A DNA stretch of 34,781 bases. Origin: an uncultured Clostridium sp. GTDB taxonomy: Bacteria > Bacillota > Clostridia > TANB77 > CAG-508. The notes under the pieces were generated by a model. The model was not told the DNA's origin and ran no database searches. It saw only the letters and a program-made list of their open reading frames with translations. Shown here one piece after another: positions 2,034 to 23,117 of this stretch (position 1 is the stretch's first letter; every line of letters starts with the position of its first letter). The position numbers were made by a program, and so were the translations under genes. The stretch lies in NCBI GenBank assembly GCA_946495905.1, contig CAMMEP010000002.1:1-34781 (forward strand), given 5' to 3'.

Positions 2034-2084
2034 AGTCTTGCAAAGGAGTCTTAAGGATTTCTTTTGCAAGACTTTTATTTTAAA
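2034..2084 (+). terminator. intrinsic terminator-like hairpin inside the 5' leader of the GNAT operon (possible attenuator)
   Basis: AGTCTTGCAAA (2034-2044) pairs with TTTGCAAGACT (2063-2073), extendable with G-U pairs, followed by TTTATTTT. It lies about 90 nt after the predicted TSS and about 30 nt before the first GNAT start. Confidence 0.5.
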
Positions 2085-2112
2085 AAAAATTAATTTTAAG
2101 GGGATGATAAGA

Positions 2113-2661
2113 ATGATAATAGAAAGTAAAAGATTAATATTAAGAAATTGGGAAGATTCAGATATTCAAGATTTAGTTGAAGGATTAAATAATATAAATG
2201 TGTCAAAATGGATGACTTCTGTTCCATTCCCATATACAGAAAAAGATGCTAAAAATTTTATAGAACATATAAAAAAACAAGATGAAAATCATAAAATTTC
2301 TTTAGCAATTGTATTAAAAGAAAATAACAAAGTAATAGGTGGAACAGAAATTAGAAATATAGATAAAAGAAATGGTACAGCAGGTGGAGGTATATGGATT
2401 AATGAAAAATATCAAAAAAATGGATATGGAACTGAAGCATTTTGTATAAGAAATAGATATATTTTTAATGAAATGAATTTAAGAAGAATTGAAAATGGTT
2501 ATTTTAAAGATAATGAAAAATCACATAAAATGCAATTAAAATTAGGATATAAAGATGAAGGAATAAAAAGAAAGAAATTTTTATGTATGGCAACAAATGA
2601 ATATGTAGATGAATGTATAACAGGATTATTAAAAGAAGAATTTATAGATATTTATAAATAA
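2113..2661 (+). CDS. GNAT N-acetyltransferase, RimJ/RimL-like (Acetyltransf_3 type)
   Basis: MIIESKRLILRNWEDSD..., QKNGYGTEA motif. SD AAGGGG is 9 nt upstream of ATG 2113. The track's 2038 start would run through the terminator hairpin. Confidence 0.85.
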   Translation: MIIESKRLILRNWEDSDIQDLVEGLNNINVSKWMTSVPFPYTEKDAKNFIEHIKKQDENHKISLAIVLKENNKVIGGTEIRNIDKRNGTAGGGIWINEKYQKNGYGTEAFCIRNRYIFNEMNLRRIENGYFKDNEKSHKMQLKLGYKDEGIKRKKFLCMATNEYVDECITGLLKEEFIDIYK

Positions 2662-2675
2662 AAGGAAGTGGTGAA

Positions 2676-3176
2676 ATGAATGAAATTATAATTAGAAATG
2701 TAGAACTAAAAGATTTAAAATCTGTATCAGAAATTACAATTAGAGGTTGGCAAACAGCTTATAGAGGAATTGTAGATGATGATTATTTAGACAGTTTAAG
2801 TATTGAAGAAAATTATCAAAAGCGAATTAAAGATTATAAGGAAAATGGTTTTATTGTAGCAGAGCAAAATGGAGAAGTAGTCGGATTTTGTAGATATAGA
2901 ATTGGAAATAATTATCAGGCTGAATATCCAGAGGTGGATTGTGAGTTATGTGCTTTATATGTAAAGCCTGAAGAAAAAAGAAAAGGTATAGGTAGAGCTC
3001 TTGTAAATTATGTTAAAAATGAATTTAAGAAAGCTAAGTTAAATAAAATGATTATTTGGTGCTTTAAGGAAAATTATTTATCTAGAACATTTTATGAAAA
3101 AATGGGTGGAATATATTGTGGAGAAACAACTTGTATAAGAGGAAATAAAGAATATGTTGAAGTAGGATATATATGA
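2676..3176 (+). CDS. GNAT N-acetyltransferase
   Basis: RKGIGRALV acetyl-CoA binding motif; SD AAGGAAGTGG upstream. Confidence 0.85.
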   Translation: MNEIIIRNVELKDLKSVSEITIRGWQTAYRGIVDDDYLDSLSIEENYQKRIKDYKENGFIVAEQNGEVVGFCRYRIGNNYQAEYPEVDCELCALYVKPEEKRKGIGRALVNYVKNEFKKAKLNKMIIWCFKENYLSRTFYEKMGGIYCGETTCIRGNKEYVEVGYI

Positions 3177-3189
3177 TTTAGAAAGTGAA

Positions 3190-4218
3190 TTGGAATTAGT
3201 ATTTCCAACAAAAGAACACAAAAAACAAGTAGAAGAATATTTAAAAGAATTTTTTGATAATGGGGAGTTTGAAATTGCAGGAGATGGTGGCTTAGACAGA
3301 ATTCAAGATTTTGATGAATGGTTACAAAAAGTTAAAAATGATTTATCTGAAGATAATATTGAAGATAGTAGAATTCCTGCTACCTTAAATTTGACAATCA
3401 GAAAATCAGATAAAAAAATAGTAGGAAATGTTCAAATAAGACATAAACTTAATGAAAAACTATTACTTTATGGTGGACATATAGGAGATAGTATTAGACC
3501 ATCTGAAAGAAGAAAAGGATATGCTACTGAGCAAATAAGATTAGCATTATTAAAATGTAAAGAATTAGGTATAGATAGAGTTTTAATGGATTGCGATAAA
3601 AATAATATAGGATCAGCAAAAAGCATTATAAGAAATGGCGGGATTCTTGAAAATGAAGTTTTAATTGATAATGAATTGGTACAAAGGTATTGGATTAGTT
3701 TAAAAAAAAGATATGCTAATAGATACGAATTTCAAGATAGTACAATTTATAAGAAAAGATCAATTAAAAGTGATGAATTTACAGGAGATATTTGTTATTA
3801 TAAGTTTAATTCAGTAAATAAAAAAATTTATATACCTAATGGTACTTGTATAATGGATAATGATTATGAATGGCTAGAGTTTTATGATTATAATTCTAAA
3901 ATTAAATTATCAGCTTTATATAATCAGAATAAAGAAATAATAGAATGGTATTTCGATATTACCAAAGTAATTGGAAAAGAAAATGGAATACCATATGAAG
4001 ACGATTTATATTTAGATGTAGTTGTAAATCCTGAAGGAGAAATAATTTTATTAGATGAAGATGAATTAAAAGCAGCATTAGATAGATTAGAAATTTCGAA
4101 AGAAGATTATAATATGGCATATAATGAAGCTAATATGTTAATGAATAAATTAAAAGGAAATAAATGTAAATTAGAAGCTTTTACAAATAAATATTTAAAT
4201 GAAATGAGGGAAGAGTAA
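3190..4218 (+). CDS. fusion protein: N-terminal GNAT (COG3981-like) + C-terminal DUF402 (FomD/Ntdp-like nucleoside di/triphosphatase fold)
   Basis: N-half has RRKGYATEQ (GNAT motif A). C-half has WYFDITKV...YEDDLYLDVVVNPEGEIILLDEDEL, typical of DUF402. TTG start. Confidence 0.7.
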   Translation: MELVFPTKEHKKQVEEYLKEFFDNGEFEIAGDGGLDRIQDFDEWLQKVKNDLSEDNIEDSRIPATLNLTIRKSDKKIVGNVQIRHKLNEKLLLYGGHIGDSIRPSERRKGYATEQIRLALLKCKELGIDRVLMDCDKNNIGSAKSIIRNGGILENEVLIDNELVQRYWISLKKRYANRYEFQDSTIYKKRSIKSDEFTGDICYYKFNSVNKKIYIPNGTCIMDNDYEWLEFYDYNSKIKLSALYNQNKEIIEWYFDITKVIGKENGIPYEDDLYLDVVVNPEGEIILLDEDELKAALDRLEISKEDYNMAYNEANMLMNKLKGNKCKLEAFTNKYLNEMREE

Positions 4219-4781
4219 TGCCAAAATTTATAATAATAGTTGGTCCACAAGCAGTAGGGAAAATGACTGTTGGGCAAGAATTAGCTAAAATAACAAATTT
4301 AAAATTACTACATAATCATATGACAATAGAATTATTAACCAAGATATTTGATTATAGTAAAGAAGCATATACAAAACTTAATTTAAATTTTAGAACACAA
4401 ATATTTGAAGAATTTTCTAAGAGTAATGAATATGGATTGATTTTTACTTGTTGTTTTGATTTTGATGTAAAAAAAGAATGGGAAATAGTAGAAAAATGGA
4501 GAAATATATTTAAAGAAAAAGGTGAAGAATGTTATTTTATTGAATTAGAAACAACATTAGAAGAAAGAATAAAAAGAAATAAAACAGATAATAGATTAGC
4601 TCATAAACCTTCAAAAAGAAATTTGGAATGGAGCGAGAATGACATTATTAAATCAATAGAAAAACATAGGTTAAATTCTAATCCAAATGAAATACCATTT
4701 GAAAATTATCTAAGAATTGATAATACAAATATATCTGCAGAAGAAACTGCAAAAATGATAAAAGAAAAATTTAGTTTATAG
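4218..4781 (+). CDS. P-loop NTPase, small-molecule/nucleotide kinase-like (AAA_33/shikimate-kinase-like fold)
   Basis: Walker A GPQAVGKMT at residues 9-17. The start overlaps the previous stop (TAATG), suggesting translational coupling. Confidence 0.7.
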   Translation: MPKFIIIVGPQAVGKMTVGQELAKITNLKLLHNHMTIELLTKIFDYSKEAYTKLNLNFRTQIFEEFSKSNEYGLIFTCCFDFDVKKEWEIVEKWRNIFKEKGEECYFIELETTLEERIKRNKTDNRLAHKPSKRNLEWSENDIIKSIEKHRLNSNPNEIPFENYLRIDNTNISAEETAKMIKEKFSL

Positions 4782-4798
4782 AAAGAGGTGGATATAAC

Positions 4799-5374
4799 AT
4801 GAAATATTTTAAGAAATTAATAGGAGATAGAATATATCTTGCACCAAAAGGTATATCTGAAGAAGAAATTGAAAAATTTACAGAATGGATGAACGATTTT
4901 CAAGTAACGGATTATACAGGAAGAACTAGTCAAATAACAACTTATGGTGGCGAAAAACAATATTTAGAAAATGCAGTAAAAGATGCTAATAATAGAAGTT
5001 TTAATATTGTAGAAATTGAAACAGATAAACTAATAGGAACAGTTGGTCTAGAACATTTTAATTGGGTTGAAAGAAGTGCAGTTTTAGGTATCTTTATAGG
5101 AGAAAAAGATTTTAGAAGCAATGGATATGGAACAGAAGCAATTAAAATAATATTAGAATATGGATTTAAATATCTAAATCTTCATAGCATAAGATTGGAT
5201 TTGTTATCAATTAATGAAAGAGCTCATAAATGTTATTTAAAATGTGGATTTAAAGATACAGGAGCAAGTAGAGAACAAATATTCTTGAATGGAAAATATT
5301 ATGATAAACTACATATGGACATACTTGAAAATGAGTTTGAGGGTACTTATATTAGAAATAAAAATATACAATAG
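4799..5374 (+). CDS. GNAT N-acetyltransferase, RimJ/RimL-like
   Basis: RSNGYGTEAIK motif; SD AGAGGTGG upstream. Confidence 0.85.
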   Translation: MKYFKKLIGDRIYLAPKGISEEEIEKFTEWMNDFQVTDYTGRTSQITTYGGEKQYLENAVKDANNRSFNIVEIETDKLIGTVGLEHFNWVERSAVLGIFIGEKDFRSNGYGTEAIKIILEYGFKYLNLHSIRLDLLSINERAHKCYLKCGFKDTGASREQIFLNGKYYDKLHMDILENEFEGTYIRNKNIQ

Positions 5375-5386
5375 GAGATGATATTA

Positions 5387-5854
5387 ATGGAAAAATTAAA
5401 AATAATACAACCTACCATAGATGAATGGTCCAAAATAAATGAATTAGCAAAACAAGTTCATAAATTACATATAAACTGGAATTCAGATTTATTTTTAGAT
5501 GTAGAAGAAGTTATTTCTATGGAAAGATTAAATAAATTATTAGAAACTGATAGTATATATGTTGCAAAAGTTAATGGTGAAATTGTTGGTTATATAATAA
5601 TAGATATAAAAGAAAAAGATAATGGTTTTATGAGGTATAGAAAATTACTGAGTATAGATACATTATGTATTGATGAAGATTTTCGTGGACAGGGTATAGG
5701 AACAAAAATACTGGAATTTGCTAAAAATATAGCAAAAGAAGAGAATTGCACAGATATGCACTTGACAGTAAATCCAAATAACGAAAATGCAATTAAAGTA
5801 TATGAAAAATTTGGTATGAAAGTTTATAATTTGTCATATATGATGAAATTATAG
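5387..5854 (+). CDS. GNAT N-acetyltransferase
   Basis: FRGQGIGTKIL motif. ATG 5387 lies 9 nt after AGGAG; the 5378 ATG abuts the SD. Confidence 0.8.
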   Translation: MEKLKIIQPTIDEWSKINELAKQVHKLHINWNSDLFLDVEEVISMERLNKLLETDSIYVAKVNGEIVGYIIIDIKEKDNGFMRYRKLLSIDTLCIDEDFRGQGIGTKILEFAKNIAKEENCTDMHLTVNPNNENAIKVYEKFGMKVYNLSYMMKL

Positions 5855-6858: not shown

Positions 6859-6945
6859 ATGTTTTATAGTATTGATAATACAGAAATAAAGTCTTCATGT
6901 GGTTCGGGAAAGAAATATAAGAATTGTTGTGGAAAGAACGCGTAA
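6859..6945 (+). CDS. mini-ORF with SEC-C metal-binding motif (MFYSIDNTEIKSSCGSGKKYKNCCGKNA)
   Basis: Open frame from 6835 (alternative TTG at 6838, 8 nt after AAAGGA). The CGSGKKYKNCCG motif matches the SecA C-terminal zinc-finger type. Confidence 0.35.
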   Translation: MFYSIDNTEIKSSCGSGKKYKNCCGKNA

Positions 6946-10167: not shown

Positions 10168-10234
10168 GCATATTATAAAATTTAGTAATAACAATAGATA
10201 AAAAACATAGTTACTATTCACGGTGTTTTTGGGC

Positions 10235-10373
10235 CGAAGCAATGTATATTTTAATTTTTATGTTTTCGGCCCCCAACTGCGTACAAACTGTAAAAGCTTC
10301 GCTTAACAGTTTGTGAACTTGTCGGTCCCCACCTTAAGCACTTCAACATAAAATTAAAATATACATTGCTTCG
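10235..10373. repeat. long palindromic intergenic element, family copy 1 (29/30-bp AT-rich arms, conserved C-rich core, inner hairpin)
   Basis: Arms are 10235-10264 and 10345-10373. Core blocks 10267-10292 and 10303-10342 are near-identical to the copy at 22943..23091. Confidence 0.7.
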
Positions 10374-10434
10374 ACATTTTAAAACAAGTTATGAATAATA
10401 ACAAAAAATTAAAAAGAAAGGAAAAATAAGAAAA

Positions 10435-15336: not shown

Positions 15337-16330
15337 ATGATAAATCCAGATCAAAATCCTGAATTTGTTAACTCGTTTTTAGATTATTCTATTACTATTC
15401 TAAATAAGTCTCCAAATTCAGTGAAAGAATATAATTATGATTTAAATATGTTTTTAAAATATATGAAAATTCATTTTAAATTAACGGATGAAAAGGACTT
15501 GAAAAAAATTTCAATTAAAGATTTTAGTTTAGATACATTAAAACGAATTACTTTAGATGATATTCATGCCTTTCTTTCCTACCTTGCCCTTAATCAGCGG
15601 GAGTAAGCCTGCTACAAGAGCGAGAAAGATTTCGACAATACGTATTTTTTTCTCTTATTTATCACAAAAGGCAAATTTAATAGAAAGTAATCCTGCTCAA
15701 AACTTAGAGACGCCAAAATTAGATAAGCGTTTACCTAAATATTTATCACTAGATGATAGTAAAAAATTATTGAATGTAACAGAGAAAGACGAAAATGATG
15801 AAAATAAAGAGCGTGATTTTGCTATTATCACTCTATTTCTTAATTGTGGCTTACGTTTATCTGAACTAGTCGGAATTAATTTGCAAGATATTGATTTTAA
15901 TGAATATAAAATGAATGTTATTGGTAAAGGAAATAAAGAACGAACTATATACCTAAATAAAGCTTGTATCGATGCAATAAAGGAATATATTAAAGTTCGC
16001 CCCACGGAAGGTCTTAAAAACGATTCTAAAGCTTCTAATAAAGCTTTATTTTTAAGTAAGCGTCGTGAACGTATTAGCAATAGAACTGTTCAATATATTG
16101 TAGAAAAAGAATTAAGAAAAGCAGGTCTTGATACTTCTAAATATTCTACTCATAAATTAAGACATACGGCTGCTACTCTAATGTATCAATATGGTCAAGT
16201 AGATATTCGTGCTTTACAAGAATTATTAGGACATAAAAGTATATCTACCACTGAAATTTATACACATGTAAGTAATGAACAAGTAAGGAATGCTGTAGAA
16301 AGTAATCCACTATCAGATTTTAATTCATAA
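15337..16330 (+). pseudogene. XerC/XerD-like tyrosine recombinase split by one extra base (in-frame CGG 15598-15600); pseudogene or +1 recoded
   Basis: Frame 1 reads ...IHAFLSYLALNQ CGG GAG TAA. The +1 frame gives G-SKPATRARKISTIRIFFSYL... The catalytic half has LRHTAATLM and LGHKSISTTEIYTHV. Confidence 0.85.
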
Positions 16331-22839: not shown

Positions 22840-22942
22840 TAAAAAGTACCTCCCTTAAATTACAATTAACACCTATATTATATATGTAATTTAAGAAAAG
22901 TACAAGTATTTTTTGAATATTATTACTATTCATAGCTCTTTT

Positions 22943-23091
22943 GCAAATAATGTATGTTTTAAATTTTTATTTCCGGCCCCCAACTGCGTACAAACTGTAT
23001 AAAATTCACATTTGTTCATTTTAACAGTTTGTAAACTTGTCGGTCCCCACCTTAAGCACTCCAATAAAAATTTAAAACATACATTATTTGC
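22943..23091. repeat. long palindromic intergenic element, family copy 2 (perfect 29-bp arms, same C-rich core)
   Basis: Arms are 22943-22971 and 23063-23091. The core is near-identical to copy 1; the loop and arms differ. Confidence 0.7.
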
Positions 23092-23117
23092 TTTTATGCT
23101 AGACTGTAAATTGTAAT

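Follow-up and report, generated by a model that had tools for sequence, protein, structure and literature searches.

Several families of miniature inverted-repeat transposable elements (MITEs) are known in bacteria, among them Correia/NEMIS in Neisseria, RUP in Streptococcus pneumoniae, ERIC/IRU in Enterobacteria and bcr1 in the Bacillus cereus group. These elements are 100–250 bp long, non-coding, intergenic and multi-copy; they carry terminal inverted repeats (TIRs), are flanked by target site duplications (TSDs), fold into a hairpin over their whole length, are present or absent between relatives and encode no transposase. Here we describe two palindromic elements whose family resembles them in these respects, found in a 34,781-nt stretch of DNA from an uncultured Clostridium sp. 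(contig CAMMEP010000002.1, positions 1–34,781; hereafter the window). Both are probably ∼195-bp copies of an undescribed, non-autonomous foldback MITE family of uncultured, AT-rich gut Clostridia. A complete unit consists of 14-bp TIRs (consensus GTTACAATTCACAG), short asymmetric spacers and ∼30-bp AT-rich arms that form a perfect inverted repeat around an asymmetric core of 70–90 nt; in our model, it would be moved as a whole by a cut-and-paste or copy-and-paste transposase acting in trans, giving 8-bp target duplications.

When one genome for each prokaryotic species was scanned for the pattern of the two blocks, the family was detected at no fewer than 104 loci in ∼20 species-level metagenome-assembled genomes (MAGs), all of them, among the matches listed, labelled uncultured Clostridia or Clostridium. 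The preliminary description of the window had allowed for these two being the only copies, which is false. The window's own sequence was recovered in chicken-gut metagenomes, and the organism is a chicken-gut bacterium; metagenome contigs break at the element, and the summed depth of the core is 100–300 times the depth of the flanks. In 21 copies, copy 2 of the window among them, both ends carried the TIRs GTTACAATTCACAG and CTGTGAATTGTAAC with at most three mismatches. Copy 1 has one good and one decayed end, and the ends of the remaining family copies are different or not recognisable. TSDs are 8 bp long and of varied sequence: seven of the 21 copies with both TIRs matched at 8/8 positions and a further three at 7/8, compared with 2% of shuffled pairs at 8/8. 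These duplications and the absence of elements from orthologous sites speak for transposition, and the trans-acting enzyme is putative. Elements of the IS200/IS605 type have neither TIRs nor TSDs, carry subterminal hairpins, insert 3′ of a fixed tetra- or pentanucleotide and use a Y1 transposase; the TIRs and the varied 8-bp TSDs argue against a derivative of this type. The preliminary description had also named a match to a known MITE as grounds for refutation, and here the outcome is divided: the elements behave as a MITE does (TIRs, 8-bp TSDs, absence from orthologous sites), while the family itself is undescribed. No similarity to the family was found in plasmids or phages, and IMG/VR viral contigs gave no two-block match, their three 15-mer matches being chance hits in GC-rich DNA. 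The core 15-mers were absent from the literature searched, in which we also found no account of such a MITE in Clostridia.

The two window sites were compared with those of relatives. Copy 2 lies in the spacer between a gerQ-like open reading frame (ORF) and pta. It is present in strain L151 (pta DNA 98% identical) and absent at the orthologous position in three species (L152, L154 and L155/L156; pta DNA ∼85% identical), one of which has a hairpin similar to repetitive extragenic palindromes (REP-like) at the site and another a solo TIR remnant. Copy 1 occupies the spacer between an aspartokinase and an ATP-grasp gene. At this site, L109 (gene DNA 93% identical) carries a 57-bp TIR-bounded remnant without arms or core, and other relatives (among L105–L111) carry unrelated palindromic repeats. 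Other palindromic families also fill the orthologous spacers of relatives (L107 3683–3870, L152 1387–1500, L110 3683–3876); the repeat types seen there are a nested palindrome with a GGAGCTCC centre, a REP-like GAGAAATTGGGGTCTGTCCCCAATTTCTC hairpin and a GC-rich structured insert. These orthologous spacers are hot spots of repeat turnover.

Re-reading of the sequence bore out most of the anatomy given in the preliminary description (Table 1). Both elements are where it had placed them, on the + strand, and share near-identical core blocks, namely the 26-nt block A (CGGCCCCCAACTGCGTACAAACTGTA), which is exact in both copies, and the 40-nt block B, which differs at one position (G versus A). Block A had no further match in the window at ≤3 mismatches, and shuffled sequences gave none (0). 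The inner hairpin ACAAACTGT/ACAGTTTGT is likewise common to the two copies; their apical loops, 14 and 25 nt long, are unrelated, and the arms are divergent between copies and complementary within each, over 24 nt in copy 1 (∼29 bp if one bulge is included) and 29 nt in copy 2, at 100% in both cases. The extents first proposed were correct for the inner parts only, as the full elements run ∼25–30 bp further on each side, to the TIRs, and measure 193 and 196 bp, with no ORF in either. The layout of copy 1 agrees with that of the 21 family copies bearing both TIRs. Folding was far better than that of shuffled sequences on both strands (z = −10.1 on the + strand, −8.7 on the − strand). Family-wide, core length falls into two classes of 65–68 and 76–82 nt, with copy 1 belonging to the short and copy 2 to the long class.

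Table 1. Positions of the two elements and of their parts in the window
Feature	Position	Strand	Remarks
Copy 1, full element	10210..10402	+	TIR–spacer–arm–core–arm′–spacer–TIR; C-rich strand on +
Copy 1, left TIR (TIR-A) GTTACTATTCACGG	10210..10223	+	2 mismatches to family consensus GTTACAATTCACAG
Copy 1, left AT-rich arm	10235..10264	+	24 nt (10235–10258) complementary to 10350–10373; 5 bp more beyond a 1-nt bulge (fold)
Copy 1, core block A, CGGCCCCCAAC TGCGT + 5′ half of inner stem (10283–10291)	10267..10292	+	C5 tract 10270–10274
Copy 1, inner hairpin ACAAACTGT/ACAGTTTGT	10283..10314	+	Short apical loop class, AAGC-TTC-GCTT
Copy 1, core block B, 3′ half of inner stem + GAACTTGTCGGTCCCCACCTTAAGCACT	10303..10342	+	C4 tract 10327–10330
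Copy 1, right arm	10345..10373	+	Fold and complementarity
Copy 1, right TIR, decayed, GTTATGAATAATAAC	10388..10402	+	Aligns with right end of the 57-bp TIR-bounded remnant of L109 at the same site
Copy 2, full element	22922..23117	+	C-rich strand on +, antisense to both flanking genes
Copy 2, TIRs ATTACTATTCATAG and CTGTAAATTGTAAT	ends of 22922..23117	+	Both ends within ≤3 mismatches of consensus
Copy 2, left arm	22943..22971	+	29 nt, 100% complementary to 23063–23091
Copy 2, core	22974..23060	+	Block A 22974–22999; inner stem 22990–22998 with 23024–23032; long loop class; block B 23021–23060
Copy 2, right arm	23063..23091	+	29 nt, 100% complementary to left arm

The matched differences between the arms had been taken as compensatory change that implies selection for a hairpin in RNA or single-stranded DNA (ssDNA). 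This does not hold, because strict Watson–Crick arms, a mirrored insertion and in-place inversion of the core are signatures of arm copying at the DNA level. Across 114 family copies, a copy's two arms matched each other at 26.7 of 28 positions, compared with 13.3 of 28 for the arm of another copy, and arm identity was 69% between copies versus 95% within a copy. An alignment of 23 sequences, which was pre-selected for near-perfect arms (this inflates the percentage of paired positions and has no effect on the lack of G–U pairs), showed both-sided changes in 25 of the 28 arm-helix pairs and, for the structure as a whole, 178 cells altered on both sides versus ∼5 one-sided (G–U) cells, a result reached by none of 500 shuffles. 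A helix selected in RNA normally tolerates G–U intermediates, and strict Watson–Crick pairing with frequent AU-to-UA swaps is the behaviour of an inverted DNA repeat. Between orthologous copies in different MAGs, ∼14 changes affected both arms versus ∼9 that affected one, and in L059/L069 a 1-nt insertion is mirrored in both arms. Mismatches within arms were of the G·T type in 17 cases and of the A·C type in 21, that is, with no sign of a strand-asymmetric wobble.

In-place reverse-complementation confined to the core was seen three times independently, in different orthologue clusters, with arms, spacers, TIRs and flanks collinear (L027b/L067a, with flanks 96–99% identical; L027a/L102b+L067b; L048/L097b). 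The window copies, too, differ from L006, L010 and L028 in the polarity of the core relative to the asymmetric spacers. We infer that the two arms of one copy would recombine or copy each other as DNA, either by intramolecular recombination with gene conversion or by template switching; a change in one arm would thereby be erased or mirrored, and the same exchange would invert the core. Arm–arm recombination or template switching would thus account at once for arms that are perfect, changes that are mirrored and cores that flip.

Inverted repeats that bound a core found in both orientations at orthologous loci are also what an inverton would present, that is, a segment flipped often by a site-specific recombinase to control its neighbours, as in fimS or the cwpV/flgB switches of Clostridioides difficile. 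We regard this as highly improbable here. The arm sequences vary from copy to copy, so that there is no common recombinase site, and the core has neither promoter nor terminator. Although the window encodes two tyrosine recombinases (838–1878 and 15337–16330), neither gene is adjacent to an element. For copy 2, contigs of four metagenomes contained the window orientation only and no opposite-strand joint, and the same was true of copy 1; inversion within a sample was not seen in any of eight run-by-locus combinations, assessed in contigs, which can hide rare variants. As to the recombinase genes themselves, the one at 838–1878 is of the phage-integrase family and is followed on its right by five GNAT acetyltransferase genes in a row (2038–5854) and a DUF3800 gene, a region that may be an integrated island. 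The other is Xer-like and split into overlapping frames (15337–15606 and 15557–16330), with its N-terminal SAM-like domain and its catalytic domain in separate frames.

Exchange was also observed between copies. Strain L151 shares arms and flanks with window copy 2. In place of the window's long-loop variant, itself a common one, it carries AAAAGCTACGCTT, the common variant with a short loop. Since a simple deletion cannot turn one into the other, the loop was likely swapped by ectopic conversion through the conserved blocks. Loop-class switches were found between other orthologues as well, for example L008/L077, and by ectopic conversion via the conserved blocks cores would trade sequence between copies.

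A further MITE with TIRs of the same kind (TIR-A) is located at 32925–33168 of the window. Its TIRs are GTTACTATTCAGCG ... CGCTGAACAGTAAC, its arms are similar (31 nt, 90% complementary), its core is different (123 nt and GC-rich), and it is flanked by a perfect 8-bp TSD (CATTAACT, 32917–32924 and 33169–33176). With the same kind of TIR around another core, one shell carries interchangeable cores.

Several points weigh against a family of transposase-driven MITEs whose arms are maintained by conversion, besides the pre-selected alignment given above and a confounding factor given below with the polarity data. Neither the loci searched (∼0.87 Mb) nor the window contained an autonomous element bounded by the family's TIRs, and the window has no transposase gene, including no Y1 or RAYT gene. 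The window copies themselves do not show a clear duplication: the flanking 8-mers of copy 1 (AAAACATA/AAAAAATT) match at 5/8 positions, so that a TSD is not demonstrable for this copy, and those of copy 2 (TGAATATT/TTAATAAT) match at 6/8, its TSD having decayed. The L154 site cannot be read as cleanly empty, given that its spacer has diverged as well. At one orthologous site, the arms and loops of two MAGs are of different versions, and a stretch of one arm (L028b) shares homology with a hairpin of the host (present in L032a), which means that the origin of the arms may exceed conversion alone. Finally, the same core is found inside TIR-A shells, inside pairs of REP-like GCAAAAGGGGACGGGC hairpins, inside other shells and in copies without recognisable ends, and TIR-A shells in turn occur with other cores or with none. 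A single transposase can therefore not explain the spread of the core. The REP-like case is seen in L002, L005, L011, L015, L019, L033, L073 and others, where the core lies between inverted REP-like hairpins (GCAAAAGGGGACGGGCTTGTTTTGC) with no TIR-A ends, in a REPIN-like outer shell.

This mosaic structure is what would be expected if the arm–core–arm unit, or the core alone, were mobile and read as an asymmetric-bubble hairpin by an ssDNA enzyme (Y1/HUH, RAYT-like) that aims at hairpin apices or palindromes. Such an enzyme would explain the same core in unrelated shells (TIR-A, REP-like, other, TIR-less), the TIR-A shells with other cores or none and the homology of the L028b outer arm to the host hairpin of L032a, and the orientation bias described below would fit activity on the lagging-strand template. 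We nevertheless consider it unlikely, as no copy with cargo or with an adjoining HUH gene was present in the loci, the window has no gene for a Y1 or RAYT enzyme, and there is neither a fixed flanking tetranucleotide nor a GTAG-type REP motif. Moreover, recombination via the similar AT-rich arms or the conserved blocks explains the mosaics equally well, and one such conversion is documented (L151). The lack of arm conservation between copies and the presence of TSDs also argue against a REPIN/RAYT system.

The core is the best conserved part of the MITE. Within it, the sequence CGGYCCCCAMC occurs twice as a direct repeat, flanking the variable hairpin. In six orthologue clusters whose flanks are 82–91% identical, the core had 6 differences in 508 positions (1.2%) and the arms 12 in 334 (3.6%), compared with a divergence of ∼11% in spacers and TIRs and ∼12% in the mostly coding flanks. 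Block A is conserved in 116 paired occurrences in the loci, and both C-blocks were present in 33 of 36 metagenome matches from a scan anchored on the inner stem only. For the inner stem, the family has four or more versions, each fully compensated. Variants of block A (CGG, CGT, CGA) did not correlate with those of block B (GTC, GTT), and a helix between the two C-blocks (GGCC/GGTC) is therefore not supported. In the local hairpin predicted for block B (CTTG..GGT-CCCC-ACC.TAAG) every column is invariant, so that covariation neither supports nor refutes it. Taken together, the uncorrelated block variants and the invariant block B hairpin indicate that the C-rich blocks are kept as sequence and not as pairs. 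An oriented motif of the Chi/KOPS kind was ruled out, as the core sub-motifs are not enriched outside the elements, and so was a cluster of restriction sites, since GGNCC, CTTAAG and CCGG are not avoided elsewhere.

The C-rich strand of the core has a clear polarity. With orthologues collapsed, it runs with both flanking genes in 51 cases and against both in 10 (p = 1e-7), and it agrees with the coding majority of the locus in 68 of 85 cases (68 versus 17); because the loci are too short and GC skew follows gene direction (r = 0.93), transcription and replication are confounded as causes of this bias. Copy 2 of the window is antisense to its neighbours, yet runs along the majority strand of the window. 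An element with symmetric TIRs would be expected to insert either way and its core can be flipped, yet the orientations are biased; from this ∼5:1 bias we infer strand-specific selection or directional flipping. The comparison of core polarity with shell polarity and gene direction comprises 10 informative copies only.

Several views of what the core may do can be weighed. On balance, we favour a putative functional, strand-specific module that is bound by a protein or a nucleic acid. Within that expectation, a possible share falls to a core read in transcripts and a somewhat smaller one to a core read in DNA or in ssDNA of the lagging-strand template. Alternatively, and this too is no better than possible, the core may be functionless cargo that is kept uniform by conversion and spread, its bias arising only because the G-rich, Shine–Dalgarno-like strand (AAGGUGGGG) is counter-selected in mRNAs. 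That it is something else altogether seems doubtful. In its most specific form, which we put forward very tentatively, the functional view would have the CGGYCCCCAMC repeats at the base of a variable hairpin work as a strand-specific module, read in transcripts or in lagging-strand-template DNA, selected locus by locus and toggled in polarity by arm recombination. If true, this would be a genome with dozens of invertible, mobile cis-elements.

Several of these features could be read in favour of a structured small RNA (sRNA) or cis-RNA family, with the hairpin selected in RNA and the unpaired C tracts serving as anti-Shine–Dalgarno loops like those of RsaE/RoxS, possibly after cleavage of the arms by RNase III. 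The fold is strong on both strands, conserved blocks occupy predicted unpaired or loop positions between variable stems, the core is far more conserved in place than its flanks, and the C-rich strand is sense in ∼5/6 of tandem-gene contexts. However, G–U pairs are nearly absent, arm indels are mirrored, the core flips in place and ∼1/6 of the copies are antisense, including window copy 2 with respect to both neighbours. Nor do TIRs, TSDs and absence from related species fit an RNA family. We found no intrinsic terminator, and promoter-like sites were no commoner than in shuffled sequences. Core-bearing contigs do occur in metatranscriptome runs and stem from other copies; in the metatranscriptome contigs that we searched, the gene upstream of copy 1 was weakly covered and copy 1 by no RNA contig, and a core-only search of the same kind, restricted to assembled contigs, gave no clear RNA run. 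The element had been reported as matching no Rfam family that could be recognised, and a covariance-model search indeed gave no match that reached the gathering threshold; those far below it were to generic hairpins (plant miRNA) only. The parallel drawn with RsaE/RoxS-like sRNAs, by contrast, was not sustained, given the missing terminator, the lack of a promoter excess, the lack of a transcript in the contigs searched and the antisense copies. The RNA reading is unsupported for the arms and unproven for the core, and we consider it improbable as an account of the family.

These results are a caution for RNA discovery, in that DNA arm-to-arm copying can yield perfect 'covariation' in dispersed hairpins. 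Such copying can be told from RNA covariation by simple signs: G–U pairs are lacking, indels are mirrored and inversion takes place in situ. The MITE is also inside out: its ends vary, and its centre is ∼10 times better conserved than neighbouring coding DNA across ∼20 uncultured gut species and is polarity-biased despite being flippable. If the core is functional, be it in RNA, replication or mobilisation, it would be a new mobile cis-element in a clade of animal-gut Clostridia about which little is known. Should it lack a function, the family would be a clean natural case of concerted evolution within and between copies of selfish DNA.

Some further observations were made in the window and its relatives. 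In element-masked DNA of L001–L104 plus the window (755 kb), GATC was strongly depleted (observed/expected ratio 0.25) and CATG and GGCC moderately so (0.50 and 0.55), which suggests restriction-modification pressure in the clade. A 41-nt direct repeat (95% identical) at 29088–29128 and 29244–29284 contains the palindrome CGAAATC..GATTTCG, and one of its copies overlaps the 3′ end of a P-type ATPase ORF (29265–31697, minus strand). A 76-nt repeat (78% identical; 303–378 and 6870–6945) encodes a SEC-C-like C-terminal motif (..CGSGKKYKNCCG..) that ends two different reading frames.

Among the known systems to which the element can be compared, the RsaE/RoxS sRNAs of Firmicutes share with it C-rich tracts that are predicted to be unpaired, and block B may form a small hairpin with a CCCC loop. 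Unlike them, the element is not a single gene with promoter and terminator but dispersed, mobile, flippable and without an Rfam match. The ssoA single-strand origins of rolling-circle plasmids carry the motifs RS_B (TTATGCCGAGAAAATTT) and CS-6 (TAGCGT) (PMC4598088, PMC5703833). The element resembles ssoA in being an imperfect, orientation-dependent hairpin of about the same kind (∼150 nt in ssoA) with short conserved unpaired motifs, and contains weak look-alikes of both: the G-rich strand has GCCGAAAA... and the C-rich strand CAGCGT/CTGCGT. The RS_B-like and CS-6-like strings are thus split between the two strands, where in ssoA a single strand bears both motifs, which ruled out an ssoA-like origin; the element is, moreover, chromosomal and dispersed, with no plasmid match.

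REPINs, or REP-BIMEs, with their RAYT (TnpA-REP) come closer, as extragenic palindromic doublets that form long hairpins, reach a high copy number, are built of mosaic modules and keep complementarity amid drift. They differ in having no TIRs or TSDs and a conserved GTAG-type REP in each arm, where the element has variable arms, TSDs and a conserved centre. Invertons such as fimS, cwpV and flgB of C. difficile and the invertible promoters of Bacteroides are similar in that a short segment, enclosed by inverted repeats, is found either way round; the element, in contrast, has no recombinase site common to its copies, carries neither a promoter nor a terminator, shows no heterogeneity within samples in contigs, and is present in dozens of copies per genome.

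The closest described systems are the MITEs named at the outset, although our searches showed no sequence similarity to the named families. The element is set apart from Correia/NEMIS, RUP, ERIC/IRU and bcr1 by its 8-bp TSD and its TIR, GTTACAATTCACAG. In addition, its asymmetric centre, and not its ends, is the most conserved part, and this centre is found in shells with unrelated ends. Unlike in those MITEs, finally, the arms appear to be kept perfect by arm-to-arm copying, and the centre they enclose inverts in place and swaps its loop.

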